Shown: piece after piece, positions 9,101 through 33,100 of the stretch
Layout of the letters: every line of letters starts with the position of its first letter
How positions within the stretch are numbered: position 1 is the first letter of the stretch
Assembly (NCBI GenBank): GCA_905178155.1
Contig: CAJINV010000006.1
Span: 688,398-752,397, forward strand
Source: Amoebophrya sp. A120
Taxonomy: Eukaryota > Protista > Dinoflagellata
Length of the DNA: 64,000 nucleotides
Direction: 5' to 3'
Made by a program: the position numbers and the translations under genes
Notes under the pieces: model-generated
What the model was told of the DNA's origin: nothing
Database searches by the model: none
What the model saw: the letters and a program-made list of their open reading frames with translations, nothing else

Positions 9101-12100
9101 ATTTTGGACCCGCCGCGCAACCGCGATGATGATGCACCGCTGCATCGCAGGTGCAAAGAGGCGCTGGTATACATGAATGATTGGCTGGTGCGAACGGAAG
9201 TGCCTTCGGCCCAGGAACTCCGCGGGAACGGGAACGACCGGCTGCCGGCGTTCAGCAAGCGGCAACTGGCGCAGGACACCTCGGTGGACGCGATTTTTCC
9301 GGGGGAGTACCTGGATTTGGCTGCATTGGGTAGTAGTGCCAGCCGTGCGGAGTGGCTCGAGACGGTAAACAACGACCGGATGGCGGTCGATGTGCCGGAG
9401 GAGGAGTGGAAATGCTTATCCATTGCAAAGGTAGCGTACTAGTTGTCGGAAACGCATTACAAATTTGCAGCTCAGCATGAGAAATCAAATTTGTAATGCG
9501 AATTTAGCTCAAGAAATTGATTTGTAATGCAAAAATGCAATTACTACGAGCACGATGCTTTTGCAGTGCATAATGCAAACTGATTTGCGACTCCATGGAC
9601 GACTGTGTGGGCTACTGGCTGTACCGGCGAGCCGATTCGGACGGAAAATGCCACCTCTTCGGCAACCGCGTCCGCTCGTTAATTCCTTTCCACAACGCCT
9701 GGACGTCTGTTTGCGTATAACCCGCTCAGGTGTTACAATCTCAGGCGTTACACTAGAGTCTGAGATTTGTCTTCCATGATGAGCATGACAGGCTCGCAGA
9801 GCGTTCCACTTTCTGCAATACAAATTTCGCCAGATTGTACTGGGGTTTGGGGCTCCGGAAGAACTTGTCATGCGCAATCCTATGAGATTTGGCTGGAGCA
9901 TGCACTTCTTGCATCACACATTTCCAGACTATATTGTAGCGTTTGAGATTGTAACACTTGAACGGGCTATATTGCGAAGACCGATTTTTCGCTTTGCCGG
10001 ATGGGTTGAAGATCATGAAAGACCCCCGGTTATGCATTGCAAATCCGTCTGGGTCTGGTTGGACGACCGCAAGATTTGTCAAGCAGGTTTTCCATGACCC
10101 ATGAGGTCTGGAATGCAGCACCTAGCATGACAAATCCTGTGAGATGATCTTCCCTCTCACCTATCATGCCTACCCTGCATGAGAAAATCCCTCTCAACTT
10201 GGTAAAAACGGGGGGCTGTTATGGTAAGCATGCAAAAGAGATTTTTTGCACGATTCAGATTTAGCATGACAAACTTGCACTCCTCCAGACCCCGACATTT
10301 ATTTGCGTTTGATACCGGTACAGCAACTCCTCGGGCCCGTACTACCTCCACGCGCTGCCGTATGGATCGAAATTGAGAAAATCGAAAAATTTGTGATGCA
10401 TAAAATGTAGGACACTGAAGGCCTGTATTGGGGAGCAGGCAAATGAGACCGATTGTAAGCCTGTTTAGTGGTATGCGATGTGCTGCCAGAGTAGCATGAC
10501 AGGAGCAGTCTTCTATGCCCAAACAGCATGACAGGCTGGATTTGGGTGCTCCCGAAATTTGTCATGCGCCGCTTGCAAACCGAGGCTCCAACTGGTATCG
10601 ATGTTATGCATCACAGGTTTTTCGATTTTGTCAATTGCGATCCTGACACTCCCATATGCCGCACCTCACGAAGAAGCCGCGCACCGCGGCAGAGGTGGCC
10701 GCCGCGGCCGAGGCGCGGGCGGTGGCCAGTCCGTACGACCCCAACAGCAACGATGCGGGGGCGGAAAAGCAGCCCTACCCCACCACGCCGTCGGTGGTCG
10801 GGTATGCGACCTTTGCACTGGAGGATACGGGAGACTTCATTCAGTGGCCCGCGCTGGAATACAGCATATCTATTGCAAAAGCATCGTAAGCTAGTAGTGA
10901 TTGCAATACAAATTTAGCTCAGCATGACAAACGGAATTTGTCATGCTGATTTAGCTCGGGAAAGAGATTTGTATTGCATGACTGCTATGAAAGCTTTTGG
11001 ACAGGATACAGCAACGCGAACTACCTGAAGCCGCATGAGGACGCGCGGTCGTCGGCCTGGTACGTGCGCTATGGATTGCAAACATGTCGGGGTCTACTTG
11101 AAGGATGCAAGGTTTGTCATGCTCGTCTGGCATGACTGAAGAGTTTGTGATGCGTGTCCAAGAAGAAAGTCTTTTGCTTGTCATGCAAAAACGGAGTTTG
11201 TCATGCGGAAAGCGCAACTACACGTAGGCACGCAAATTATTTCTCATGCTTGTCTGCGCATTACAGACAGCATTCACTACTTATTCACAACTCAGCATCT
11301 TCACAAGTTCCCAGACATTTGCAGTTGATATGCGCACCGCCACGGCAGGGTTGAAAAAGAACATCGTGATCGCGGTGGATTACTCGGTATCAAATGTAAA
11401 AATGTCTGGGTCTGGAAGAATCCAACTTGTCATGCTGATTTTGGATTCTAAAAAAATCTGTATTGCGTGAGCAGCAAAGAGAGTCCAAGTTTTGCTACAC
11501 GGAAAGAGCATTTGTCATGCGGTATAGGCATCAGGAAGCCCCCACAAAATCTGTGATGCTAGGGCATGCATCACAGACATCAGGAGTCATGCAAAATGTG
11601 CATGACAAAGACAAACCTGGCAATCTTCCAGACCCAGACATTTTTACATTTGATACTCGGGTTCGATGCGATCCGACGGCAAGTGGGATGCGGCCAAATA
11701 TCAAACGGAAAAATCCCCCTTCCACACGTCAAAACGAAGTTTCTGATGCTGGATTTCCCTACACAAATCAGAGCTGTCTTGCAGTAGAGGACTGCAGGCA
11801 TATGCCGTGCCTGAGTTGTACAGAGCTTGTGACGTGGACGCTTAGCATCACAAATGTCTGCGCTTTAAAGCCCAAGCAGCATGAGAAACCGTCCGCATAA
11901 TGCGGCGGAGACTGTAGAGTCGGCTTCTTGCAAGACAAAAAGATTTGTGGTCACAAATCAGCATTAGAACTTGTGCCTTTTTGACATGGGGAAGAGGGAT
12001 TTTTCATTTTGATACCAAAGAGGCTGTCTACATCGTGCTGGACTCGTTAACCGAGGGGGACCGGTTTAACCTCTTTCTCTGGAACGGGTACGTGCAATTG

Positions 12101-15100
12101 TCGTCCTTCGAGCTGTTGCCGGCCTACCCAGAGCTGATCAAGCGCGTGAAAACCTGGCTGGCCAACATTCCGTTTCCGTGGGCGACAACGCCCGACAGAT
12201 CTGGCTGGTGGACGAACATCGAATCCGCGCTGTCCTTTGGCCTCACGCTGGCGACTATCAAATGTAAAAATGTCTGGGTCTGGAAGATTGCCAGGTTTGT
12301 CATGCACATTTTGCATGACTCCGGATGTCTGTGATGCATGCCCTAGCATCGCAGATTTTGTGAGGGCTTCCTGATGCTTATACCGCATGACAAATGCTCT
12401 TTCTGTGTAGCAAAACTTGGACTCTCTTTGCTGTTCATGCAATACAGATTTTTTTAGAATCCAAAATCAGCATGACAAGTTGGATTCTTCCAGACCCAGA
12501 CATTTATACAGTTGATAGCGACGCTCGGCGTATTGCCTGCCGAAATTCGGAACACGTACGCGGACCCTAGCAAGTCGTGGAGCATGAATCGCTGGTCAGA
12601 CTCTTCCAAGAAATTGAAAGACTCGCCGTACGTCGGCGGGGAATTTGAAAACAACCCAGAGTACACATGGCAAATATCCCTGGACGTCTGGAAGATTTAT
12701 TCCAGATTTGTCATGCTTGTCTGACATGACTCGGAACTCTTGTAACATGCGTCGGTGCATCAAAAAGATCGTTTTGTCTGTGATACAAAAGCGCAGTCTT
12801 CCATGCGGAATAAGTACGCTACACAGAGCAGCTCAAAAACTTGTCATGCTTGGCCACGTATAATGACAGTGCGCCCAGCATAATTCCCTGGTTTGCATCA
12901 CAAGTTTCCAGACCCAGATCGATGTTTGCCTTTGATACGGAGCAGCCGTCGCCAGAATTCGAATGTTTGCAGGCCAACGATTTCTGCAGCGCGCGCTATT
13001 CTGAGTAAAACCGTCCCCACCCGAGAGGTGTCATGCAAATCTGCATGCTGAAAATGTTTCTCATGCGGAGCCCCATGAGATGCATTGTGTAGTCGTGTTT
13101 TGGAATTTGTCATGCTCCAATCAGAATGATATCCTAGATCTGTGATGCTGCTTAGTTAGCTCCAACAGCACTACACTACGAGTCCAAATTGGTCATGCAA
13201 AACAGCCGAAGCTTGGAGATTTGTCTAGCCGATTCTCCATCTTGACTATGGGGTGGGGGCGTTTTTACATGGGATACGCGGCTACTGTTACTCACCGACG
13301 CGGAAGAGGAGTGGACGGAGTCGCAGCAGTATCACATGCAAAAATGTCTGGGTCAGGGAGGATGGAGCTTGTCATGCTAAATCTGAACCAGGCAAAAAAC
13401 TGTGTTGCATGGTTGCCACAAGTTGTGCACTTTTGACCTAATCGAGAGGCAGTTTCTCATGCAGGAAAGGCATTAGAAAGGTCTCGCAGAATCTGTCATG
13501 CTATGTCCTACATACCAGACCTCATGGGGCATGGAAAACTTGCGTGACAAATCTGACGATCTTCCAGACCCAGACATTTCTGCAATCCATAAGCAGAACA
13601 AATTTAAAGACGAGTATTTCCTGAAGCAATGGGGCACCAAAATGTCGGTGTACATTTTGAAGGCCGCGACCAATGAAGACCCACCTTATGCTATCCTGAG
13701 CAAAAACGTACCCACACCAGAGTCAAGATGGTAAATCTGCTAGACAAATCAACCAGCTTTGGCTGTTTCGCATGACAAGTTTGTCCTTGTAATGTAATCC
13801 TGTTTAGGTAGTTCAGCAGCATCACAGGTCTAGCATATCATGCTGATTATAGCATCGCAAATCCCAAAACACGATTAGAATATGCCTTTCATGGGGCTCA
13901 GCATGAGAAACTTTTTTGGCATGCAGATTTGCATTACAACTCTGGTGTGGGTACGTTTTTACTCAGGATATATGCTCCCTTTTTTGACGAGGTAACCGCG
14001 GACTACGGTGGGAAGGTGCTGTATGGATGTGTCAGGTTTGAAACCGTCAGAGTTGAAATAGTTTGTCATGCATAAAATGGATGCCAGTTGGAGCCCAGTT
14101 TTCAAGTGGCGCATGACAAGTTTTGGTGGTGCCTAAATCCAGTTTGTAATGCTGTTTGGGTAAGGAAGACGCCTTTTGTCATGCTACTTTAGCAGCTCTA
14201 TTTCTACCCCTCAACAGGCTTGCAATATGCCTCCCTTGCCTACTCTGCAAGACAGGCGCTTTGCGGGTTGCATTTTATGCATCACAAATTATTTCAACTT
14301 TGACGATTTCAATCCTGACGCTTCCATATGCTGCTCATGAACAGCGGCGAGCCGGATCAGATCAAATCGCAACTGGCCAACTACTATCAAGTGCAAATAA
14401 ATATGTCTGGGTCTGGCAGCCTGTAAACCTCTCATGCAGGAGGTTTTCCATGACCCATGAGGTCTGGAATGCGGGACCTAGCATGACAGACTCTGCGACG
14501 TCTGTGTCATGCCTTTCCTGCGTGAGAAATTCTTTCCCAAAGGTGGACAGCTTTTGGCACTCATGCAACACAGATCTTTGCATGATTCAGATGTAGCATG
14601 ACAAGTTGCACTGTCCCAGACCCAGATCGATATTTGCAATTGATAACTACTGGCGGCAGTTGGAGGGCGAGATCCTGGCGGAAGAGCGGGACTTAGATCG
14701 CCCCGTGTGGACGAAGCACAGCTGGGACCGGCTGGTGACCACTGACGAGACGCAGCAAGACTTCAAACTCGTGCACCCACCCGTGCAAAAACTCTCCGCC
14801 TGTCTATCCTGAGTAAAAACGTCCCCACACCAGAGTTGTCATGCAGATATTTGCAATGACAGGAACATTTGTAATGCGCATCGCCAGGAGAGGAATTTTT
14901 AGTCGTGTTTTGGAATTTGTAATGCTGTAAACAGGATGAGCAGATGGATTTCTGATGCAGCTGGCCTTGCGAACCTGCACTACACTACGGACTGCAACTT
15001 GTGATGCGTGACCCCCAAAAGTTCTAGGTTTGTGTTGCAAAATCCCCATCTTGACTCTGGTGTGGGGATGTTTTTACTCAGGATACTGTCTGCCGGTCAC

Positions 15101-18100
15101 CTATTCCCCCCCGTCGGCAGCGAGGTTGGGCGTGCTGTGCCTGGACCTCTCTTTGTTCTCCGGTAGCACCAACACCGCCCCGCGGTACTACCCGCTGCTC
15201 CGTTGCTGGCCGGGGTTCAACCAGATTTTGGCGCGGCGCACGGACGCCGACATGCTGGAGAAGGCGTGCCCGGCCCGGGAATTCAAGGCGGACCGGTGCA
15301 ACACCGAAAGGCCGCTCATGTACAAGTATTGGGGGAAGAAGGACGGGTATCAAAAGGAAAAATCCGCCCTCCCCATATCGAAAACAAAATTTGTGATGCT
15401 GTATTTGAGTACACAAATCAGGTTTGTATTGCAGAGAGGCATTGCGGCCAGATCCCCAGGCTAGCTGGGGGCGTATGGTTCTAGTTGCGCAGCATGGCAA
15501 GCGGCTCCCTTTTAGGCCTCACAGCATGAAAAATCGCTTCCATAATGGGGCGGAAGCTTCTGCCCTTGTCTTCTTGCAAGACAAATGTGATTTGTGACCT
15601 CAAATCAGCAACACAAATTTCCGGAAACGTACCTGTTCGATATGGGGAGGGGGGATTTTTCTCTTTGATAACGGGGGCAACCACCGGCGGCGCAGCGCAC
15701 GCCGCCGCCGCCGTCGTACGCCGTCGTCGGACAAGTGGCTGCGCGAAACGGACTATGAATTGCAAATATGTCTGGGTCTGGAAGAATGCAAGTTTGTCAT
15801 GCTTGTCTGGCACGACTCGAGAATCTGTGTTGCATAGGCACGAAACGGCACTCTTACCTGTCATGCAAAAACGCAGTTTGCCATGCGGAATACCTAACAC
15901 ATGGCAGCCAAAAAATTTGTCATGCATAGCTGCGTATTGCAGTGCGTCTAGCATTCCTTTTTAGCATTACAAGTTTCCAGACCCAGACATACTTATTTGC
16001 AATCCATACGGACGTGACCGGTTGCTTGGACAGCTTGGACGACTCCACTTATCCCAAGGAGGTCGCGGTCCCCGACACCGACGAGAATTCCAACGTGCAC
16101 AAGGTGCGGCCCTGCTTTCCGGACTACTACTTGTATGAATTGCAAAAATGTCTGGGTCTGGAAGATTGCAACTTGTCATGGCAAATCTGAAGCATGCAAA
16201 AATCTGTGTTGCATGAGTGCCAAAAGCTGTCCACTTTGGACCAAGTTGGAACGGAGTTTCTCATGCAGAATAGGCATGGCAGAGACCTCGCAGCGTCTGT
16301 CATGCTAAGTCCCGCATTGTTCCAGACCTCATGGGTCATGGAAACTGTGCATGACAGGTCTACACTCTTCCAGACCCAGACATTTTTACATTTGATAACT
16401 TGGCAAAGAGCACGATGGACACGCTCGTAGTCCCCGATAGTGGCCAGCTCACGGCGGCGTCGAGCGGGGGGTCGAGTACTTCCCCTTCCGGGGAGGCGGT
16501 GCCGGAGAAGTTTTCGGCGGACTTATCAAAAGGAAAAATCCCCCCTCCCCATATCGAAGTGGAAATCTGTGATGCGGGATTTGTGTACACAAATCGGCTT
16601 TGTCTTGCAGTAGAGGACTGCAGGCAGATGCAAAGCCGGAGTAGGGGCATTTTGGTGTAGGCGCCTAGCAAAGCAGGCATATCCTCCGTGAGCCATATAG
16701 CATTACAAATTGCCTGCAGGACGCGGCGAGGTTTTTGCATTTGCCTTCTTGCAAAACAGAGACGATTTGTGGTCTCAAATCAGCATGACAAATTTTCAAA
16801 AGTATACCGGTTTGGTATGGGGAGGGGGGATTTTTCCTCACAATAGGACTACGACGCGGAGCAGCAGCGAGCCTGCCCGGTGAATTGCGTGATGAATCTA
16901 TCAGAATGAAAAATCCCCCTTCCCCATATCAAAACGAAGTTTCTGATGCTGGATTTGCGTACACAAATCAGATTTGTCATGCTGGCGAGGACTGCAGGCC
17001 GATATCAAGCCTGAAAAGACAGGTTTTGGCCTAGGCGCTTAGCATGACAGAGGTCTACGCTTTAGGAGCATGAGCATGACAAACCGCCTGTAGAATGCGG
17101 CGGTTGTCTGTGGGGTTGCCTTCGTGCAACATAGAGATGATTTGTGGCCACAAATCAGCAACACAAATTTTCGAAAACGTACCTTTTCGATATGGGGAGG
17201 GGGGATTTTTCCTTTTGATAGAACCCCTGGACCGCCTGGTCTGCCTGCTCCTTGTCCTGCGGAACCGGGGAGCAGAGCCGCACCCGGACCATTGCCCTGC
17301 ACCCGATGTTCAACGGCCAGGCGTGTGACGCCGTGGCCGAGATATGGAATGCAAATATCGATCTGGGTCTGGAAACTTGTGATGCTGAATTGCACATGAC
17401 TGCAACGCCGGCAGCGGCAGCCCAGCATGACAAACTTTCGGAACGCTTTTTGCTGCGTGACGCGCATGACAAATTGCCTGTAATGTATTTTGCATAACAA
17501 AAAAAGCTGCTCATTTGCTGCTCATGCAACACAGATTTTCCAGGAAAGCAAGATACGCATTACAAGTTGTTACAACCTTCCAGACCCAGACATATTTGCA
17601 AGGCATACGAGATCCAGAACTGCAACGAGCAGCCCTGTCCCGTGGACTGCGATTTTAGCGAGTGGTCGGAGTGGACTGATTATGCATTGCAAATATGTCT
17701 GGGTCGGGAAACCTGTAATGCTGGGCTGGGTATAGTGAATGCTCTGTAATGCACAGCCAAGCATGACAAGTATTTCCGCCGATTAGTGTTGCCGTTTCCG
17801 CATGACAAACTGCGTTTTTGCATGACAAGCCGAAGAGTGTCTCGTCTTGGACACGCATCACAAACTCTTCAGTCATGCCAAACAAGCATGACAATCCTTG
17901 CATCCTTCCAGACCCGGACATATTTGCAATTGATACCGATTGCACCGTCTCTTGTGGTCCCCCCGCGGGAATCCGCACCCGAACGATTACCATTAACAGC
18001 GGGTCGCTGAACGGCGGAGCGGCGTACCCTGAGTAAAAACGTACCCACACCAGAGTTGTAATGCAAATCTGCATGCCAAAAGAGTTTCTCATGTTGAGCC

Positions 18101-21100
18101 CCATGAAAGGCATTTTCTAATCGTGTTTTGGGATTTGTGATGCTATAATCAGCATGATATGCTAGGCCTGTGATGCTGCTGAACTACCTAAACAGGATTA
18201 CATTACAAGGACAAACTTGTCATGCGAAACAGCCAAAGCTGGTTGATTTGTCTAGCAGATTTACCATCTTGACTCCGGTGTGGGTACGTTTTTACTTAGG
18301 ATACGGCGTGTCCTTTGAGTACCCAAGAAACGAAAGCGTGTCATGATGGCAATACCTATCAAATACAAAAATGTCTGGTGTTTTGTCTGGACGAAACAAG
18401 ACCTTGGTACAGCACGGGGAAGAGAACGACTTGAACTTTTTGAAGAAAGAAAATAAAAGAGAACTACGTGGATGCACTATGTAGAGAGAGAGATTAAAAC
18501 ATGCTATTATGTCCACCGGTAGAACTAACTACTACTACTTATACTATCACTTGCGCAACATACAAATCGGGTGCAATGAACTTCTGCCCACGGGGTCCCG
18601 CAGGCTCTACCAAAGTGCTACGCTGGCCAAAGCGCTAGGCACCTGGGAGCCCGTGGGTGCTCGCGTAGTATGTAGTGAGGTCACCGAACGGTTCTAACCG
18701 GGGAGTTTTCTTGCCATGCATCGCGCAAAACGACCGGCAGTTTTCAAGCGGGCGGAAGTGTTTTTTGACAAAAAAGATTTTCAATTATAAAGCGGCTTTG
18801 GCTGTGTCGGCACCGAATCGCCAGCGGATTCTATCGATCGCCGCTGGGTAAAACGACGCAGAGGAGCCAGCAAAAGGAGCGCCATTCTGAGGCGCCCACC
18901 GCCTTAGTTTCTGGCGGTTTGGGGCGCCCAAAAAGGGGCGCGAAAAAAACGCGCCTAAAATCAGAACAGCGAAACAGCACGGCACGGCCGCGATTTCGGA
19001 GCATTTTGGGCGGCAGCGAAAGCGGCCGAATTTTCGCCGGTTTCAGAGCCTGGGAAGCTTTGCAAAAAGCGCCGGCGCGAAAAATAAAAACGCAAAAAAG
19101 CAAAAGCGCGCCAGACGCGCAAAGCCAACCCGCATGCTACGGGCCCGATTTCCCTTCGCTTTTTGGGCGCCCCCAGTGGCACCCGGATCGGCCCCATAGC
19201 ATGGGGGCTGGCTTTCGGAAAGGAATATCGGGAATTTGCAAAAATTTGCGACGTTTACAAAGCGGCCGCCATACCGTGCGGCCTAACGTTACTCACGACG
19301 GTATGGCGAACCCAGGAAAAGCACAGCCGCGGCCAAAGCGACGGCCGGCAAGAAAACGCCCACGACCTCACTACCTCCGCCCCGGCGGCTATATTTGGTA
19401 GTGTCATGGCCGTGCGAATAGCACACCGTGGGTGCGTGCGAATAGCACACCGTGGGTGCAAAAATGTCTGGGTCGGGAAGATTCTGACACTTGTCATGCA
19501 CGTTTTGCATGAGCCCTGATGTTTGTGATGCATGCCCTAGCATCACAGATTTTTTGAGAGCTTCTTGATGCCTATTCCGCGTTACAAATGCCCTCTCCGC
19601 GTAGCAAAAATTACATTCCCTTATTTGGTCCTCATGCAATACAGATTTTTCTGGAATCCAAATGCAGCATCACAAGTTGCATTCTTCCAGACCCAGACAC
19701 TTTTGCATTTGATAAGCTGGAGAAGTGCACGCCGCCCGAGGGCCCCAACAAGCCGAATGCCGTCTACCTGCTGCTATCCTGTGCAAAAGTATCGTATTCG
19801 TATAATAAATGCAAGTCTTGCATTACAAAAAGGTAAATCACCATTACAAATTCCATTTCTCATGCTGAGAAAATTTGTAATGCATTTATAATTATACGAG
19901 TACGACTACGATACTTTTGCAGTTCATAGCTGCCGACGGGCAGTTATTTGGAAGGGGCGACGGTGGGGAAGGCCGACCGAGACGATCCCCACGTGAACTG
20001 CACAAGCCCCACCTCTACCGACCCCGGTTGTGCGGACCCCCCGTCAACGGGGACGCTCTCCGTGTGGCCGGCAAAGCTGGCCGGGGAAGCGTGGAAGAAA
20101 GTGTTCGAGGACGCGGCGCAGGATCCTCTCGACCCGTACCACCCCGGCAACGTGGTGTACCTTGTGTCCCCCCTCCGGCGCGCCATGGAGGCGGCCGCCA
20201 ACTTCATCATTTCGGCACGGTCTACAAAGACACCGCCTCGAGTGGGGGGCTCCTGGGGGTAATCTCCCACGGCTATCTGAACGGAGAAGGCAGCAAGTCC
20301 TTGGCGGAAAATTTTCCCGAAATTTTTTTGGTGCCGCAACTACGGGAGGCCGGTCTGCGCCCGCCGCGGCCGCGTGCCAACGAGGGCACGCGCGTGGGGA
20401 GATGGAAGGACATGGTGAAGTATTGGCCCCTTCTATCCTGAGTAAAAAGGTACCCACACCAGAGTCAGGATGGGGATTTTGCAACACAAACCTAGGAGTT
20501 TTGTGAGTCACGCATGACAAGTTGCACTCTGCAGTGTAGTGCAGGTTAGCAAGTGCAGCCGCATCGCAGATTCATCTGCTGCTCATCCTGTTCACAGCAT
20601 CACAAATTCCAAAACACGATCGGAAGTGGCTCTCATGGGGATGCGCATTACAAGTCTTCCTGTCTTTGCAAATCTGCATTACAACTCTGGTGTGGGTACG
20701 TTTTTACTCAGGAAACTTTCGGTTGTTGAGCCCCACATTTACGCTGTGGGAGCTGACCGACGGACCGACGGACGCGGAACGACACCAGGCACTATCAAGT
20801 GTAAAAATGCCTGGGTCTGGAAACTTGTGATGCTGTGTGGCGTCTCATGATGAGGCCACAAGTGCTGGCTCAGCATGACAAGTTTCTGAGCTTCTAGGTA
20901 TTGCCTATTCTGCATGACAAACTGCGTCTCTGCATCACAGAAAAATGAAGCTCTTGGGTAACGTGCATGACAGATTTAAAAGTCATGCCAGACAAGCATG
21001 ACAAACATGCAGCATTCTTCCAGATCCAGACATCCTTACACTTGATAGGCACTGAGTGACTACAACCTGGACGAAAGTGCGAAGCTTGTCAAGTGGCTTG

Positions 21101-24100
21101 ACGAAGAAAAGTATGGTGCCGACTACTGGGACCACCACCTGCAAGACGTGCCGGAAGACAAGCAGTACTTTGAAACCTGGTACCGTAACACCCTCATGTC
21201 GGGCCACGGCCCGGCGGCGCTCAAGGACAAGGTGGTGATTCTGGTGACCGGACTCGACCTAGCCAACATGGCGTTTGAATTGTTCGCTGCCGACGGCGTC
21301 GCCAAGTGGGACCTGCAGTCACGTCTGGTTCCGCAGAGCGCTGCTGGAAACGGGCAATGGTGGAGCGAGTTGAGCGGGATGTACAGCGGGAGCATCCTGA
21401 CCCCCTTTCGCGCCGACGACCCAACTACGTGTTCAACAACGGACGGCCACGCCGCAGCAGGCCAGTGCGGCCGCACTGCCCGCGCCCTGTGGGAACTGAT
21501 AGAGCAGGGCCCCAAGACGCCGCTGCGAGACGAGCGTCCGACCCACGAGGATTGGTTCGGGGCGGCCAATACGCAGCCTCTACTCTCCGAGGCAGAAACC
21601 GTGACGCCTCCCGGGAGACCACCCGGCGCCACGTGGCCCGTCAACTGCGAGCTCGAGCAGGGGTATGACGGTGGATGGAGCCCCTGCAGCTGCGCGGACG
21701 GTGTTGCGGCGGAAAAGACCCAGCACCGAATCAGGTGGGTTGAGCGGGAGAATGCGACTCGGTGGGCCGGCAGCTTTTACGAGGAGCTGGGGTGGTACAA
21801 GTTGCAGGTCTATCAACTGTAAAAATGTCTGGGTCTGGAAGATTCCAGGATTTGTGATGCATATTTTGTATGATCCGTGATGCATGTAATGCATGATCTA
21901 GCATCACAGATTTTTAGAGGGCTTTCTGATGCCCATTCTGCATGAGAAATGCCCTCTCCGCGTAACACAAACTGGACTCCTGTTGCTGGTCACGCAATAC
22001 AGATTTCTTTGGAATCCAAAGACAGCATGACAAGTTTAGAATCTTCCAGACCCAGACACTTTTACATTTGATAAGGTCGGTGGGGTGGTGCAACCGCCGG
22101 TAGAGGCCACCTGCGAGGGCCGTTTCCCGTATCAAAAGGAAAAATCCCCCCTCCCCATATCAAAAAGGAAATTTGTGATGCTGATTTGTGACCACAAATC
22201 AGCTTTGTATTGCAGAGAGGCACTGCGGCCAGATCCCCAGGCTAGGTAGGGGCGTATGGGTCTAGTAGTTCAGCATGGCAAGCGCCCCCCTTTAGGCCCA
22301 ACAGCATGACAAACCGCTTCGATAATGGGGCGGAAGCTTCTGTCCTTGTCTTCTTGCAAGACAGACATGATTTGTGACCTCAAATCCGCAACACAAATTT
22401 TTGGAAACATACCTTTTCAAAATGGGGAGGGGGGATTTTTCCTCTCAATATCCCGGGTTTGAAGTTCTTGATGGGTACCGACGAGGACGGGAAGAGACGA
22501 CGCTACTCGCAGGAAACGAAGACCTGTCCCGGAACCTCGTGCGAGAAAAAAGCACACTGTTATGAATTGCAAAAAAGTCTGCGTCTGAAAGATTGCAACT
22601 TGTCATGGAAAATCTGAAGCATGCAAAAATCTGTGTTGCATGAGTGCCAAAAGCTGAAAACTTTTGACCAAGTCGGAACTGAGTTTCTCATGCAGGATAG
22701 GCATGGCAGAGACCTCGCAGAGTCTGTCATGCTAAGTCCCGCATTCCAGACCTCATGGGTCTTCAGGGAAAATCTGCATGACAAGGCAACACTTTTCCAG
22801 ACCCAGACATTCTGCTCCCAGGTGCCCAGCGCTTTGGCCAGCGTAGCACCTTGGTAGAGCCTGCGGGACCCCGTGGGCAGAAGTTCACTGCACCCAATTT
22901 GTATGTTGCGCAATAGTAGCTTATCGTAGTATAGTGGACGCAATAGCATGTATTTATTTTAGTTCTCTCTACCTGAATCTACGTCGTTTTCGTTTTTTAC
23001 TTTTCAAAATTTCAAGTCGTTCTCTTCCCTGTGCTGTACCACGGTCTTGTTTCCAGACAAAACGCCAGACATTCTCGCACTTGATAATACCGACGGTGAT
23101 ACGATTCGTTGCCCCATCGACTGCGTGATGCACCCCTGGGGGGCGTTCTATCAACTGCAAATATTCCTGGGTCTGGAGAGGATGGGATTTGTGTTGCTAA
23201 CTTTCGATCATGTAAAAAGCTGTATTGCATAAGCCGCACAAGGTGCTCAGATTTTTGCAACGCAGAGGGCATTTCTCGTGCAGGATACGCATGAGCAACC
23301 CTTCGCGAAAGGGAAAGCTGTGATGCTAGACAATGCATGATCTCCGGACTCGCTGGTCCTGTACATGTACAATCTGCATGACAAAGTTCCCCTTCCAGAC
23401 ATCCAGACATATGTGCATTTGATACGTTCACGGCCTGCTCGAAAACGTGCGGCCCGGACGGGACGAAAACGCAAACGCGGAGTGTGCAGGTTCATCCGGA
23501 ATTCGGGGGCGAAGAGTGTCCGAAGATCGCTGCAAACGAGAACGGCGAACAAACGGGCGGGGGTGTAGTACTTCTCCAGCTCAAGGAATCTTCCGGATTT
23601 GTCGACATCGAAGAAGGAATGTTGGACGGTACTTACGCTGAAAACGAGTGGGACAAGTATGGCCCGAACGACCAGGACCCGTTTCTGGGGCCCTTCCCCG
23701 CGGCGCTGCAGAAGGTGATGCACGAGGAGTTCGGCACGGAGAATCCGACCGACGCCGTATCAAAAGGAAAAATCCCCCCTCCCCATATCGAAAAGGTATG
23801 TTTCCGAAAATTTGTGTTGCTGATTTGAGGTCACAAATCGCATTTGTCTTGCAAGGAGACAAGGGCAGAAGCTTGCGCCCCATTATGGAAGCGATTTGTC
23901 ACGCTGTTGGGCCTAAAGGGGAGCCGTTTGCCATGCTGAGCAACTAGTAGGCCCCTACCTAGCTGGGCACCTGGCCGCAGTGCTTCTCTGCAATACAAAC
24001 CTGATCTGTGTACTCAAATACAGCAACACAGATTCCGTTTTCGATATGGGGAGGGGGGATTTTTCCTTCTGATACGCCGAGACGGAGCTGTTTGTCCCGA

Positions 24101-27100
24101 ACCCGAAGGCGCAGTGGAACTGGGACTACAGAGACACCTACATATCCCCAACAGAGCTGATATCAAGTGCACTTCTGTCTGGGTCTGGAAATTTGTGATG
24201 CTAAAATGTGCATGATGAAAACACGTCCTCATGCAGGAAAGCACAACAAGTCTGGTGCACAAGAACGCTTTATCATGCGAACTCCGCATGACGAGAAGGG
24301 AAGCTGCATTTTTCAATGACGTGACAGACTTCTGCCACTTTTGTTCGTCATGCAATACAGTTTTCACAGGAATGCAAGACCAGCATTACAAATTCCAACT
24401 TTCCAGACCCAGACATTTTTGCGCTCCATAGCTGAACCGGTGTGAGCAGGAGGTTTTCGTCAAAGCGCTGGAAGCTTACTCCGGCACCGGTTACGGCTAT
24501 CGAATGCAAATATCGATCTGGGTCTGGAAGAATGCGCGACTTGTCATGCGGCTTTTCCATGACCCATGAGGTCCGGAATGCAGAACCTAGCATGACAGGT
24601 TCTGTGCGATCTCTCTCATGCCTATCCTGCATGAGAAACTCCCTCCCGACTTGGTCAAAACTGGACGACTTTTGGTAATCATGCAACACAGATTTTTGCA
24701 TGCTTCAGACTTAGCATGACAAGGCGCCATCTTCCAGACCCAGACATTTTTACATTTCATAACGGCGGTCCTGAACTGAACGTGCGCGAGATCCCGGATG
24801 CCGTGTATCGCAAGAAAAAACTGTTTCACTGTGAACTTGTGATGCAGAAAATGGAACACAGAACTCTTTGTCTTGCTACACCTGCATAGAGCATTGGAGT
24901 TTCAACCGTGTTTTCCCCTATGGGAAATGCGCGCACTACAAATTTTCAGTGTCATGTGTAGCAAACTTGTGACGCAGCTCCTGCAAAGTCATCACAGTGA
25001 AACAGTTTTTTCTTACGATGCCGCGCTTGGCGAGATCAATACTGAAGCAGAGGCGGAGAACTTCCGCGCTTTGGTACACGAGGCAGGGAGCAGAACTTCC
25101 GCGTGTGGCAGTACTAGATGGACCACGGCGGTGCCCAGCACCACGACCACCACCTCGACCACCACCTCGACCACCACCTCTACGGCCAATCTGGTTACTT
25201 GGACTGTCAATACCGTGAGCTGCAACACCCACGTGGTCTGCCCGATTCACTGCGAAATGGAGGAGTGGACACTTTGGTCGGCGTGCAGCACCAGCTGCAA
25301 CGCAGACAAACAAGTCTACCCCGGCAGCCCCGTCCCCACCCGAACGCGCACACGCGGAGTGAAAACTCCGCCGGAACACAACGGCGCGACCCCCTGTCCC
25401 CCAGATTGGAGCCAAACCGAGGAGTGCAACGCGGCCGTGTTTTGCCCGGTGGAATGCGTGGTTGACGACTGGACGGATTGGTCGACTTGTGCCGTGTCTT
25501 GCGGCGGAACAGACTCGACCATCCACGAACGAACCAGACAGGTGACGCAAACCAATTTGCACGGCGCGCCCATATGTCCGGGAGTCACCGAGCAGAAGAA
25601 GTGCGGACAGGACCCGTGCCCGGTCCACTGCGAAATGACTGAGTGGACCGACTGGGGCCCGTGTTCCAAATCTTGCTACGATCCTGATTTTCCTTTGAAG
25701 GGCAAACGAGGGCGAACCAGAAGCGTGGTTACTCAGCCGGCCAACGTATCAAATGCAAAAATGTCTGGGTCTGGAAGATTCCGAGACTTCTGATGCAGTT
25801 TCTCTAAGCTCCACTAAGTGTGGAATGCAGGACCTAGCATCAGAGGATCTGCAGCCCCTCTGTGATGCCTGTTCTGCATGAGAAATGCCCCCTCAGCATG
25901 GCCAGAAATGGCCACCTTTTGCAAGTCACGCAACACAGATTTTTGTTTGATGCGGAACATGCATCACAAGTTCCAAGCTTCCAGACCCAGACATTTTTGC
26001 AATTCATACAACGGGGGAGATGACTGCCCGATCATCCAGTCACAGTTATGCGTTGCAAATATGTCTGGGTCTGGAAGTTTGGAACTTGTATTGCTAGCTC
26101 TGCATTCCTGGGAAACCTGTATTGCATAAAAACCAACAACAGGAGGCGCGGCCTCTTTTGTCATGCAATGCACGCAGCTTCTCATGCGGGTTGCCTATGA
26201 GAAAGCGTTCTGGGAAGTTGTCATGCTGGCCTGCGTTCGGAAGTGTTTCACCATCATTCACAGTTTAGCATCACAAGTTCTTTCCAGACCCAGACCACAT
26301 ATTTGCATCCTATAGCAGACAGAGGTCTGTGGCGAGGTGGAGTGCCCGATCCATTGCGAAGTGTCCGCCTGTGTCGAGTGCAAATATGTCTGGGTCTGGA
26401 AGAGTCCGAACTTGTGATGCTGCAATTGGATTCCAAAAAAATCTGTATTGCATAAGCAGCAAAGGGAATGCAATTTTGGCTACGCGGAGAGGGCATTTGT
26501 CATGTGGAATAGGCATCGCGAAGCCCTCACAAAGTCTGCGATGCTAGGGCATGCATCACAGACATCATGCCCCATGCAAGACGTGCATGACAAGTCTCAG
26601 AATCTTCCTGACCCAGACACTTTTGCATTCGATAGCCTGGAGCGAGTGGTCCGCTTGCTCGGCGGGCTGTAGGCGCGATCCGCAGCACGATCCGCTCTAT
26701 GATCCTTCGGCGCCGCTGCCGATCCTGTTCCGAACCAGAACTGTCACCAAGCCGCCGGAATTTGGGGGAGCCGGCTGTGGTGATCTGCGGCAAGAGGAGC
26801 CGTGCAACCGGGATACGTTTTGTCCGATCGACTGCGAACTGTCCGAGTGGGGCGCCTTTGGGGACTGCACCGAAACCTGCCGGACGGACGAGACCGACTT
26901 GTCCAACACGCAACGGCGGACGAGAACGAAGCTGGTGGAAAAACGACACGGCGGCAACAGTTGTCCCGACAACGGAACTTTGGAAGAGATCCGGCAGTGT
27001 GCGGACCCGGACAACAACGCCCTCTGTCCCATCGACTGCTTGATGGGCGACTGGTCGGTGTGGGGCTCGTGCCCGGGGCCGTGTCTGCCGCACGAACAGG

Positions 27101-30100
27101 ACAAAAGCGTGTTGCCAACGGTTACATATGATCCGAAATACCTAACCGAAGCCGATATTACAATGAAAAATCTCCCCTTCCCATACTCAAACGGAAATTT
27201 GTGTAGCATGATTTGTGATCACAAACCACGTTGTCATGCTAGAATGGAAGAGATGCGGTCTGTAGTGCTGGTTGGCGTGGGTCAACCTTGCGTCTTCAGC
27301 ATAACAGGAAGCAACTGGAAGCGGGAAACAGCATGACAGATTGCCTGCATACGAGGCCGCGTCTGCGTCTCTTGGCCTTCTTGCAATACAACTAGATTTG
27401 TGTACTCAAATCCAGCATCACAAATTTCCTTTTCGATATGGGGAGGGGAGCTTTTTCCTCACAATAGCCGACTTCTCATCTTTCGCCGACTTCTCCCTCT
27501 GGCGGAAGCAAAAAAGAAGCCGGGAAATAGCGGTGAATTACCGCGCGCCCGGGAAGACATGCGCTGATGTTTACGGGGTCGTGGAAATCTTCGATGTGCT
27601 CAACGCCCGACACGACGAAGCGCCAGCGGGCTATGGGGGTGTCAGGATTGAAATCGTCAAAGTTGAAATAGTTTGTGATGCATAAAATGCAACCCACAAA
27701 GCGCCTGTCTTGCAGAGTAGGCAAGTGAGGCAGATTGTAAGCCTTTTGAGGGGTAGAAACTGAGCTGCTGAAGTAGCAAAACAAAAGGCGCCTTCCTTAC
27801 CCAAACAGCATGACAAACTGGATTTAGGTTCTTCCTAAATTTGTCATGCGCCACATGAAAACTGGCCGCCAACTGGTAACCGTTTTATGGATCACAAATT
27901 ATAATTTGAACTTTGACGAATTTCGATCCTGACACTCCCATACGGGCGATAAAAAAGTGAAGTTCGTCGATCACGACAGTAACGGGTCCGGGGACTTAGA
28001 CGAGGCAGAAATCAAGACATTCGTGTACGATAGTGATTTAGTCACGAGTAAATTCCTGCAGTGGTTTGACCGAGACAAAAACGGCAAGGTCTCGCTCGCT
28101 GAGTGGAAGCAGAAATTCTTCGGAAACGCGTATTTGGATGAAAGTATACTGCGGCAACTAAACGCGTTGCGAACGCTCGATCCTACCCCCCACCACTTCC
28201 AGTTCACCGACTACAAGTACTGCGAGCCCACGGCGTGCAAAATTCACTGCGAGGTCTCGCAGTGGTCGGAATGGTCGGCTTGTCCGAAAACCTGCGACGA
28301 GTTCCAGCAGACCAGGACGCGCGAAATTGTAACCAGCCCACACTTCGGCGGCGACAACTGTCCCGGATCGTTGAGTGAGACCAAAGTCTGCAACGAAAAC
28401 AACCCCTGCCCCGTGGATTGCGTTCTGGGCCCCTGGGTAGACGACACGGAGTGCAGCGCGAGCTGCGGCGACGGCGCGACCAAAACCCGGAAACGCGCGC
28501 TGTTTATCAACTGTAAAAATGTCTGGGTCTGGAAGATTCTGACACTTGTCATGCACTTTTTGCATGAGCCCTGATGTCTGTGATGCATGCCCTAGCATCA
28601 CAGATTTTTTGAGAGCTTCTTGATGCCTATTTCGCATGACAAATGCCCTCTCCGCGTAGCAAAAATTACATTTCTTTTGGTACTCATGCAATACAGATTT
28701 TTCTGGACTCCAAATGCAGCATCACAAGTTGCATTCTTCCAGACCCAGACATTTTTACACTTGATACTGTTGGAGGATGCGCAAAACGGGGGCAGTTGTG
28801 GCGACGTGATTGACACGAACTACCAGCTATGCGTTGCAAATATCGATCTCGCTCCTCTGGACCACTGCAACTTGTTATGCTAAGTCTGGAGCGTGCAAAA
28901 ATCTGTGTTGCATGATTGCCCATAGTAGTTGTCCACTTTTGACCTCCAAGTCGAGTGATAGTTTCTGAGGCAGTTTCTCATGCGCTATAGGCATGATATA
29001 GATCTTCATCTCACGGAATTTGTCATGCTAAGTCCTGCATTCCAGATCCAGCCTTCATGGGAGGTCATGGAAAATCTGCATGACAAACCTTGCGCTCTTC
29101 CAGACTACTCAGATCGGTGTTTGCAATGCATACCATTGCGATTTGGCCCCCTGCCCGATCGACTGCGTTTTGTCTCAGTGGGTAGCGGAAGACGTCTCCC
29201 AGTGCTCGCTTACTTGTATGCACTGCAAATATAATGTCTGGGTCTGGAAGAGTGCGACATTGATTTGTCATGCTAGTCTGGCATGACAGTAACCTCTGTA
29301 TTGCGTCGCCACGAAGAGCTCCCCTTTTGTGTCATGCAAAGTGGCCGCTTCTCATGCGGAATACGCAACACAGAGCCACGGAAAAATCTGTCATGCTTGT
29401 CGGTGCATTACGGTGTGCTTACTTTTCACTGACGTGCATCACAAGTTTCCAGACCCAGACGTATTTGCAATGCATAACTTGCGGCACAGGGCAATTGAAG
29501 CGAACGCGGAAAATCGATACACCGCCCGATCATGGGGGGAAGGCCTGTGTGGAACCGGAGGGGGCGGTTCTGGTGCTAGAGGATACCATTCCCTGCAACA
29601 CACAACTCTGCCCGGTTGACTGCGTGCTGACGCCGTGGCGGCCGGAAGACACGGCCTTGTCCGTGGATGAGCAGTGCTCAAAGTCCTGTGGCGGTGGCAC
29701 GTACAAAGAGGTGCGGGGGGTGAAAACCGCTGTGGCAAATGGAGGGAAAGCCTGCGACGCCGAGGGGCTGCAGAGTGACGGCACGTATTTGAGGCAGACG
29801 AGTACGTGCAACACGCAGGCCTGCCCTGTGGATTGCGCGTTCAGCGATTGGATGGAGGATGGAATTTGTTCGATCAGTTGTAGCACCGACGCCTTTCCCG
29901 AGGGCGCGCAGCAGTGGAAACGGACCCGACTCAACGAGGCGATGCACGGGGGAAAGGCCTGCACACTACCGGTTTTCGGCGGGAACGTCACGGAGAAGAC
30001 CGAATCTTGTTTCAAAGACCCCTGTCCGATCGACTGCGTAATTTCTCCCTGGTCGGGCGACGTATCCTCTTGCACCAAGACCTGTGGCGGTGGACAGTAC

Positions 30101-33100
30101 ACCCGAACTAGGTCGACCCCAACCTCCTCCGCCCACGGTGGGAAGACGTGCGTAGAGGTCGACACCGAGCAATCGTCTGATAATCAGCCAATTTTAGATC
30201 CGGATGATTCTACGAAGATCGCGTTAACGCAGACGCTTTCGTGCAATGCAGACCCGTGTCCGGTGGACTGCGTTTTGTCTCCGTGGGTCGGGGATCCGGA
30301 CACTTGCACTGTGACCTGCGGTGGCGGAACGTACAAGCAGACGAGAACGTCGACTGGGCCGGAGCATGGGGGGAAGACTTGCGACGACCAGACTGTGGAT
30401 CCGAGTAACTTGCAGGGGGTTCTGGAACAGTTTCTGTCCTGCAAGACGTCTCCCTGCCCGATTCACTGCGAGCTGGAAGAATGGGTTTCCGACATCGACA
30501 CCTGCGCCGCTAGCTGTACTGATTCCACGAAGAACATCGCGGACGATGACATTTCCCAAGGCCCAACCTTGCAGCGGACGCGGGGGATCAAAGTGCACCC
30601 AGACCACGGGGGCGCCGCGTGTGGGGATCTGGAAGAAACGGTCCCGTGCAACCGCGACGTTTTCTGCCCCATCGACTGCGTTGTGTCCCCCTGGTCCTGG
30701 GAGCAGCCCGCGCAGGTGAAAAAGTGCGACTTTGAACATGGCGTCGACTACTACGGGGGAGACATTTACGACCCTCCGCAGACGCCGACGGAGACGGGCG
30801 AGCAGTGTCGAGTTCGGTGCGAGAACATGCCGGAATGCACCGCCTTTTCCTGGGTTTACGGGGTGACTGAGCACACGACAGGGGACAAAAACTGCGCCGT
30901 CAAGATATAACCTGCTCAGGTGTTACAATCTCGAACGTTACAATAGAATCTGGAATTTGTGTTGCAAGAAGTGCATGATCTACCCAAGTCTCATAGGATT
31001 GCGCATGACAAGTTCTGGAGTCCCAATCCGCACTACAATCTGGCGAAATTTGTATTGCAGAAAGTGGAATGCTGTCCGAGTCTGTCATGCTCATCACGCA
31101 ATACAAAACCCACACGCTATTGTAACGTTTGAGATTGTAACGTTTGAGCAAGTTATACAAGCGACTGGCGGACACGACGGTCAGAACCGCGACGGGTTGC
31201 TGCGACGGCGGCAAGTGCTCCACGATCGAAGAAGGAGAATGTAGTCACACCTGCGGACCCGACGGGGTGATGACGAAAAAACGAATTGCCACGACGCCAG
31301 CGAATTTCGACGGCGAGGAGTGCGGGGACCTGGAACTCCAGGTTCCCTGCAACACCGAAATTGACTGCCCGGTGGACTTATCAACTGCAAAAATGTCTGG
31401 GTCTGGAAACCTGTGATGCAAGGAAAGGAATAGTGAGCACACTGTGGTGCGCTCCCCAGCATGACAAGTTTTTCGGTGCCTCTGAGTTACGTACTCCGCA
31501 TGAGAATCCACGTTTTTGCATGACAGACCAGAGGACCTTGTCGCGGGCACGCAATACAGAGTTTAGAGTCATGCCAAACTAGCATGACAAGTCTCAGAGT
31601 CTTCCAGACCCAGACATTTTTGCACTTGATAAGACTGCGTGGTTTCCGAGTGGATTGATGACGACCCCGTGGGCAACTGCTCGCACACTTGCGGCGGGGG
31701 CAAGTACACGAAAAAAAGAAACATCAAGGTCTATCAAAGTGGAAAATCCCCCCTCCCCATATTGAAACGGAAATCTGTGACGCGGGATTTGTGTACACAA
31801 ATCACGTCTGTCTTGCAGCGGGGCACTGCAGGCAGACCCTAAGCCTGTGCAGGGGTGTTTTGGTGTAGGTGCTTAGCATAGCAGAGGCCTGCCATGTTGG
31901 TGAAACAGCATCACAAACCGCCTCCATAAGGCGGCGGGTTCTTTGGATTTGCCGTCTTGCAAGAGAGACAGGATTTGTGGTCACAAATCAGCATCACAAA
32001 TTTTTAGGAACGTACCTTTTCAGTATGCGGAGGGGGGATTTTTCATCGCAATAAGGTCCCTCGGGTCGGCGACGGAGCGGCCTGCTTGCCGCTCGAAGTG
32101 GTGGACGACTGCCAAACCCAGCCTTGCCCCGTCGACTGCGTAGTCGGGGACTGGTACGAAACGTCGGAATGCACGCACACCTGCGGCGACCTGGGGACCC
32201 GCACAGAACAAAGAGACGTTACGCAGCCCCTGTATGGGAGCGAGTGTCAGGATTGAAATCGCCATGACAAATTTTGGCACTGTCTAAATCCAGTTTGTCA
32301 TGCTGTTTAGGGACAGAAGGCGCCTTTTGTCATGCTGCTTTAGCAGTTCTATCGTAGACCCCAAACAGGCTCACAGTCGGCCTCACTTGCCATCCCTGCA
32401 AGAGAGACACTTCACGCCTTGCAATTTATGCATGAGAATTCAATCCTGACGCTTCCATACCCTGCACGGGGGCCTGGCCTGTCCCACGGAAGTGACCAGG
32501 ACGCTGTCCTGCAACCGGGAGAAGGCCTGTCCGGTGGATTGCGTGTATGAGAGTGGTCCACAACTCCGCCGTCCCTCATTCGCATGGCCTCTACAGCAAT
32601 ACAACTCCCAGTACGAATGGAGCTTGCGCATGACAAATTTACGTGCCCCGGGTAGTACTGTTTTTGCTTCCGAGATTTGTCATGCAAACAATGCCGCAAG
32701 GCAGCAGCTGGAGTTTGGATTTAGCATGACAAATGAGGGGGACGAGCGGGGGTTGTGCACTCTTATAGCACGCTGGGTAACTGGAAACCGGATCCGAACG
32801 GATGTTCTAAGACCTGTGGCGACGAAGGTTTGCTGATCAAAACGCGGGAAATTCTTGTCGACCCCGACCACGGCGGAAAGGAGTGCGGGGACCTGACGAC
32901 GACGGAGCCCTGCAATCGGCTGGCGTGCCCGATCCACTGTGTTTTGAAGGAGTGGGAGGCCTGGGAAGCGTGCTCGCATACCTGCACGCCCCGCGACCAC
33001 GGGGAACCGATTCAGGATTTCTACGGCACGCGAAGCCGGACGAGAGGGATCGAAACCCACCCTGCGAACGGTGGGACGAAGTGTGAGCAGATTGGGTCGC

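Follow-up and report, generated by a model that had tools for sequence, protein, structure and literature searches.

In Amoebophrya sp. A120, introners are described as having tips of TAT, about 7 variable bases and at least 3 A, and a direct repeat of 3-5 nucleotides (nt) at the exon boundary; neither a U1 small nuclear RNA nor a transposase was found in this organism, according to the available portion of PMC7789003. A120 introner families of about 0.8-2.5 kb have also been catalogued (PMC12130899, available part). Here we describe an element of 4,730 bp (18357-23086) within a coding exon of a TSP1-repeat adhesin gene, in a 64,000-nucleotide stretch of the A120 genome that is called the window hereafter. 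The element contains a fragment of another gene, and it is likely removed from the precursor messenger RNA (mRNA) whole, as one oversized intron, as judged from the host reading frame and the predicted folding of its ends.

Pack-MULEs, which belong to the Mutator superfamily, have duplications of 8-11 bp and G/C termini, and in the alternative transposition of Ac/Ds (macrotransposons) the ends of two separate elements jointly mobilise the intervening DNA. In GingerRoot elements, TA..TA ends go with terminal inverted repeats (TIRs) of 100-150 bp and with 6-bp duplications; of 77 such elements, 22 contain gene fragments that include introns (available part of PMC6839031). Single-copy Pack-TIRs are attributed mostly to gap filling with microhomology (sections available of PMC8277862). 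In the nonconventional introns of euglenids, the ends are paired via a TIR and the lengths range from dozens to thousands of nucleotides (available passages of PMC11282704 and PMC12501133).

Boundaries of the element and the host reading frame

A perfect 5-bp target duplication, ATACC, flanks the element at 18352-18356 and 23087-23091, in the manner of the direct repeat at the exon boundaries of introners, and the termini are TA..TA. The two long arms form an inverted repeat (18357-18650 against 23086-22814, 294 and 273 bp); their alignment has 27 gap positions and 270 aligned bases, of which 241 are identical (BLAST E 3e-70). BLAST gave no further match to the arm within the window. Over its first 22 nt, the left tip agrees with the tips of family-A introners of the window at up to 21 of 22 positions; this tip fits the introner definition given above, and the A run of the right tip is degenerate. 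The window is crowded with small elements of 150-320 bp (88 counted, median 263 bp) with TAT..ATA ends and 5-bp duplications, a motif that agrees with the description of A120 introners available in PMC7789003. The size ratio to this local median is 18.0 (4730/263). The duplication, the arms of ~280 bp, the family-A tip and the size of about 18 times normal had all been proposed by a first-pass annotation made from the letters alone, and each was confirmed.

Six of the 13 sequencing runs listed were compared (X1, X5, X6, X7, X8 and X11), of which X1 behaves as DNA. Summed contig depth is a rough guide to copy number only, and the contig sets drop some records. In these independent data, an exact contig of run X1 (23034-23711) bridges the junction between the right tip and the host exon.

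When the element was removed together with one duplication copy, an open TSP1 frame was obtained across the junction, and Pfam recognised TSP_1 in the next exon; the in-frame excision that restores a TSP1 linker, as proposed earlier, was thereby reproduced. The host frame is stop-free for 5,081 codons over 1166-39180 (2,769 of them downstream of the element) and for 1,874 codons over 41200-52000, so that 4,643 codons downstream (2,769 + 1,874) are without a stop. This count was made after removal of 68 elements, six of them by hand, with cuts inside mismatched duplications chosen to avoid stops, and it leaves out 39180-41200, a region with two apparent canonical introns. Over 14 kb of a dead gene, ~3 stops would be expected at 0.5% divergence and ~19 at 3.3%.

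The minimum free energy fold of 18304-23148 predicts that 237 of the 294 left-arm bases pair with the right arm and that T18357-A23086 closes the stem. The predicted arm duplex amounts to -393 kcal/mol, compared with -34 and -17 kcal/mol for 44-nt pairings of arm tip with nested tip. Because the arms are predicted to pair directly and their pairings with nested tips are far weaker, one-step removal by end pairing would be the simplest model. The nested or recursive splicing that had been suggested for this locus would accordingly lose its recursion, which becomes unnecessary if the predicted arm-arm pairing gives removal in one step.

A recent, unspliced insertion truncating the adhesin in this strain would also be in keeping with the perfect duplication, and read-through of the element does meet stops in all three frames, in the host frame after 28 codons. 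Moreover, the A120 paralog P0001, the only homolog returned by a protein search with a host exon (limited to 194-2,000 amino acids; 81% identical over 47% of the query), might buffer the loss, and the published A120 intron analyses were limited to 40-1,000 bp (PMC7789003, available portion). Nevertheless, we consider such a truncation improbable, given the 4,643 downstream codons without a stop, the arms that are predicted to close a stem as small introners do, the second exon insertion of this kind in contig L001 (see below) and the A120 introner families of ~0.8-2.5 kb catalogued in PMC12130899.

The full host protein probably exceeds the length that the protein search can return. At least ~7,000 codons long, the gene codes for numerous TSP1 repeats, a PAN domain and, as recognised by eye, vWA-like and EF-hand-like stretches, and is split by roughly 90 introners. 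Two apparent canonical-type introns lie at ~39169-39764 and ~40990-41165, the first with an internal direct duplication of ~100 bp. It should also be mentioned that P0001 and window 23598-25106 have a non-TSP1 module in common over four exons (53-86% identity), in differing context.

Table 1. Coordinates of the 4,730-bp element, its contents and its host gene (window positions)
Feature	Position	Strand	Basis
Host gene: giant TSP1-repeat protein with PAN domain	1166..52000	+	Frame after introner removal, Pfam
Host exon upstream of element, ending in left ATACC (18352-18356)	18304..18356	+	Sequence, alignment
Left long arm; 18357-18650 inverted repeat; first 22 nt family-A-type tip	18357..18670	+	286/305 identical to L001 arm
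Nested 727-bp high-copy repeat	18671..19397	.	Absent from L001, X1 and X7 arm copies; depth
Left arm, resumed; 24-bp tandem duplication (19412-19435 / 19436-19459) at cargo junction; TGCA microhomology 19457-19460	19398..19460	+	Arm comparison
Truncated family-A introner, without ~7 nt of outer tip and left duplication; cargo left end	19457..19714	+	BLAST, sequence
Cargo, six exon pieces of another gene: 19715-19774, 19929-20433, 20716-20792, 21048-21810, 22074-22129, 22451-22560	19715..22560	+	1,546 nt after nested introner removal
Intact nested introner, duplication GCTGC	19775..19928	.	Sequence
Intact nested introner, one duplication mismatch and one altered terminal base	20434..20715	.	Sequence
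Intact nested family-A introner, duplication GGCAC	20793..21047	.	Sequence
Intact nested family-A introner, duplication AGGTC	21811..22073	.	Sequence
Intact nested introner, duplication TCCCG	22130..22450	.	Sequence
Truncated family-A introner, without ~8 nt of outer tip and right duplication; cargo right end, GC microhomology with arm	22561..22815	+	BLAST, sequence
Right long arm, 273 bp, family-A-type tip	22814..23086	-	Arm alignment
Right ATACC (23087-23091) and downstream host exon	23087..23148	+	Alignment, X1 contig

The gene fragment, its junctions and a second element

As the first-pass annotation had recognised, the element holds 5 intact and 2 truncated introners in a fragment of another gene, the truncated ones flanking the cargo (19715-22560). 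One frame is open throughout the six exon pieces, yet codon usage over the first ~125 codons points to a different frame, and a reading with a switch at about 20212-20215 scores 46 log units better than a single frame. An intact cargo frame was thus not upheld, and the frameshift is genomic, since an exact X1 contig spans 20212-20215. The exact X1 contigs over the cargo (19899-20461, 20983-21833 and 22440-22619) have depths of 43-45, and with 23034-23711 included the range is 43-48. Cargo exon bins over 21237-21758 gave a depth of 44.7 with a single exact contig at 90% likeness and no second copy in X1; the bin 19932-20192 reached 83.9, about twice single copy, which is probably spill-over from the adjoining repeat.

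With the cargo at single-copy depth and no sign that this cargo-bearing copy multiplied, the dispersal of introners and exons imagined earlier found no confirmation, and the donor locus that was to be looked for did not appear either as a second copy at 90% likeness over 21237-21758 in X1 or as a protein match. No relatives of the cargo protein were obtained in a search limited to 446-2,000 amino acids or in another that gave 0 matches among 1.84 billion representatives, Pfam assigned the cargo exon to no family, and tblastn of it against the window gave nothing significant. Its Atlas matches to Peptidase_C13, at 0.83-0.84, are a lead only.

Both cargo ends fall at most 10 nt from outward-facing family-A tips, the chance of which is about 2e-5 (62 tips in 64 kb; estimated post hoc). 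At the left junction, the 24-bp tandem duplication is followed by the TGCA microhomology and then by a family-A tip minus about 7 nt. The two bounding introners (19457-19714 and 22561-22815) are inverted and 68% alike, and are predicted to prolong the arm stem inward. Viewed as the segment of a composite transposon, the cargo is bounded by two family-A tips, both of them trimmed, and has no flanking duplication.

A second cargo-bearing relative of the element exists in L001, an independent metagenome contig and the sole metagenome match. It occupies 476-2934 with TTCCT on both sides. The left end is the long arm, the right end is a family-A introner without its first 22 nt, and 1.9 kb of unrelated cargo lies between them; removal of this element and of one small introner restores a host frame on the minus strand of the contig. 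Its arm is identical to the window arm at 286 of 305 positions (94%). This cargo is the 3' part of an open reading frame (ORF), with ~390 codons present, plus an AT-rich tail; the ORF had no homolog except itself in the protein search and no usable Atlas match. A loose end in X8 at window position 22814 represents a third arm copy, joined directly to family-A-type tip sequence.

The arm is therefore repeated, as judged by a depth of 331.6 for the X1 arm contig against ~45-48 for single copy (a rough guide) and by the 94% copy in L001, while the cargo is not. Compared with other copies, the window arm shows 4 differences in 121 positions and 11 in ~293 (3-4%). Patterns from the arm and the nested repeat had zero matches in viral contigs, and Rfam gave only three weak matches on 18300-19500, far under threshold. 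No transposase was recognised in the part of the window ORFs that was scanned. Of the proposal that the element is a non-autonomous derivative of a large parental transposon, the former half holds, in that it is a non-autonomous long-TIR member of a multi-copy family and carries DNA of another gene; by arm matches and by the ORFs scanned, no parental transposon was seen in the window.

It might be argued that the arms and the duplication are real and that the cargo belongs elsewhere, having been misplaced here when the assembly was joined across introner repeats. Repeats do form both ends of the cargo, its single-copy depth is also compatible with such a join, and the arm-cargo junctions are unbridged among the X1 contigs listed. 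However, one repeat cannot serve both joins because the bounding introners are inverted and only 68% alike, and the junctions are new trimmed sequences rather than common repeat interior. A frameshifted cargo in an exact contig would be unexpected of a live gene, and the same architecture is seen in an independent assembly (L001). We hold a misplaced cargo to be quite unlikely.

Exon shuffling was considered as well, with the cargo exons being spliced, now or formerly, into the host mRNA through two introns of hybrid make-up (18357-19714 and 22561-23086). In the usual register of element plus 5 nt, phase is kept at the two outer junctions, the cargo of 1,541 nt is one base from a whole codon number, and each hybrid intron has TAT..ATA ends. 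The phase match at both ends, however, would arise by chance in 1 of 9 cases, a ribosome entering the cargo in its natural frame would now meet a stop near 20260, and the stems of the hybrid introns are predicted to be much weaker than that of the arms and lack matching duplications, so a shuffled protein seems very unlikely.

The interior outside the cargo had been described as ~0.8 kb of unique sequence, which proved wrong: most of it is a separate 727-bp insertion (18671-19397) that has a 3-bp duplication (GTA) and a subterminal inverted repeat of 11 bp. It is identified as a nested repeat because the other arm copies run straight across its site, that in L001 passing directly from window 18670 to 19398 and those in X1 (depth 331.6) and X7 likewise lacking 18671-19397. 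Its summed contig depth is 13,000-17,000 over 18627-19409 versus about 45 for single-copy exons. A120 families 26 and 71 (721-730 bp, 10-11 bp TIR; PMC12130899 supplement, as far as available) resemble it by size only; six motifs sought in the supplements of that paper gave zero sequence matches. As a side observation, ~600 raw RNA reads of X11 match a 62-nt piece of this repeat (window 18726-18787) at 90-95% with one constant differing flank per side, which suggests that an abundant transcript carries a conserved piece of it.

Proposed capture of the fragment and probable removal of the element

The favoured explanation, which we believe has an even chance of being right, is that this is a non-autonomous long-armed TIR element inserted in a coding exon, that its interior is a 3.36-kb piece of another gene, now decayed, which was captured in one piece after cuts at the tips of two introners, and that the whole is removed as one intron by arm pairing. 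An integrase-like (Ginger-type) transposase would treat arm tips and family-A tips as equal ends, and would cut at two family-A introners 3.4 kb apart, in one at its left tip and in the other at its right tip. The freed segment would lose 7-8 nt per end, and microhomology repair would join it into a break in the long-arm element. As the arm-arm stem would close exactly at the duplication, like that of small introners, the same non-canonical splicing would remove the whole interior, the nested introners would need no prior splicing, and the cargo would then decay as intron sequence. Cutting rather than copying would fit the single-copy depth (44.7) of 21237-21758. A120 family 38, listed as Ginger class with a 5-bp target-site duplication and TA/TA termini in the available part of the PMC12130899 supplement, counts for a Ginger-type account.

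The same element and the same splicing could also go with a cargo copied by ordinary gap filling, in which template switches occurred at introner hairpins and the donor has diverged, been lost or been missed. Such an origin is usual for single-copy Pack-TIRs (PMC8277862, sections available), both junctions show microhomology and one shows a tandem duplication, and the donor might be missed where contig sets drop records. Against this, no second copy was present at 90% over 21237-21758 although the arm has diverged from its family by just ~3-4%, and the near-symmetric trimming of both outward tips by 7-8 nt resembles processed transposon ends. We therefore rate gap filling as unlikely.

The element is real and unusual, and L001 strengthens the case for it. 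Several points weigh against the favoured explanation. Five RNA or probable-RNA runs (X5, X6, X7, X8 and X11) gave zero pieces on the host exons at either side. Contig comparison at 90% likeness and the protein searches yielded neither a donor scar nor a donor protein, and no transposase was recognised among the ORFs scanned. Among the X1 pieces listed, the left tip junction and both arm-cargo junctions are unbridged and 22830-23013 is without a contig of this locus; this gap over the right arm may stem from contig simplification and is evidence neither way. In addition, the arm divergence may predate the insertion, which could itself be too young to have accumulated stops. A single cargo frameshift versus none in the host is insignificant alone, the cargo being ~7% of the coding bases examined. 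L001, too, may be read as an arm plus cargo entering a resident introner via the shared 22-nt tip.

The raw reads of X11 likewise gave zero cover of host or cargo exons. X6 depths of 0.44 and 0.62 near the host exons were considered as a spliced contig and rejected, as they disappeared at 97% likeness.

The L001 element may have moved as a hybrid with one long arm and one introner end. A bolder generalisation, which we put forward tentatively and regard as doubtful, is that introner tips are interchangeable transposon ends, any two of which, or one together with a long arm, would move the exons between them as a composite unit into other exons, where splicing by end pairing alone would remove it. 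If this were true, thousands of introns would together be a permanent means, tolerated by the host, of moving gene fragments, in some cases in a phase that allows exon shuffling.

That two cargo-bearing elements have their junctions at introner tips suggests a capacity of introners to rearrange exons besides adding introns, and such elements could bring gene pieces into other genes without disabling those genes. For how Amoebophrya splices its non-canonical introns and what moves them, a 4.7-kb element with five complete introners and mismatched tips offers a natural test. Were complementary DNA to link 18356 with 23092, the intron would be defined by the pairing of its ends alone, whatever its length or inner signals. 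The multi-copy long arm provides a specific probe for the missing autonomous parent.

Comparison with known systems

A120 introners have in common with the element the TAT..ATA ends, the 5-bp duplication, the insertion into exons, the restoration of the frame on removal and, in the window, the tips of the commonest family; the element differs in its 4.7 kb, its arms of ~280 bp and the foreign exons inside, and its own splicing is inferred (PMC7789003 and PMC12130899, available parts). Among the 50 rows (of 58 A120 family rows) of the PMC12130899 supplement that were covered, none lists a multi-kb element with ~280-bp arms.

Ginger and GingerRoot elements are recognised by TA..TA or TG..CA termini with a short duplication, and the element has TA..TA and 5 bp, like A120 family 38. 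Autonomous members of this group encode an integrase-related DDE transposase; an autonomous copy of the present element was not recovered in the data compared. It resembles GingerRoot in its TA..TA termini, its long TIRs, a size within the 4-13 kb range and its captured exons and introns, and most cargo-bearing GingerRoot elements are without transposase (PMC6839031, available part). It differs in having a 5-bp instead of a 6-bp duplication, arms of ~280 instead of 100-150 bp and a site in an exon rather than far from genes, and neither a transposase nor a donor was found for it in our searches.

Its duplication of 5 bp and TA..TA ends set it apart from Pack-MULEs; a MULE-type family with 8-9 bp duplications and GG/CC termini is listed in A120 (family 65; PMC12130899 supplement, available part). 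As in Pack-TIRs, TIRs and a duplication enclose host genic DNA with exons and introns; a further mark of that group is a parental gene identifiable elsewhere in the genome. With Pack-MULEs and Pack-TIRs, as described in the sections available of PMC8277862, it shares the nature of a non-autonomous TIR element with host DNA, microhomology at the breakpoints and a single copy; the differences are breakpoints at the tips of other small elements, a donor that was not found and probable removal as an intron.

The likeness to Ac/Ds macrotransposons lies in the proposed joint action of the ends of two separate elements. Here, however, the segment that would have moved is missing its tips and no duplication marks its joining, while in L001 the long arm and the introner end have a common duplication. 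The nonconventional introns of euglenids also pair their ends through TIRs and can reach kb lengths, but they have a CAG/CTG end code with fixed spacers, and the passages available of PMC11282704 and PMC12501133 mention no captured genes.

A gene-carrying introner was not reported in the literature searched, in which few subscription papers were covered. The statement of the first-pass annotation that no such element was known to it consequently holds for the combination of introner and gene capture; Pack-type capture by TA..TA long-TIR elements and A120 introners of kb size are both in print. Each component is already known, and the novelty lies in the combination of an introner with Pack-type capture.

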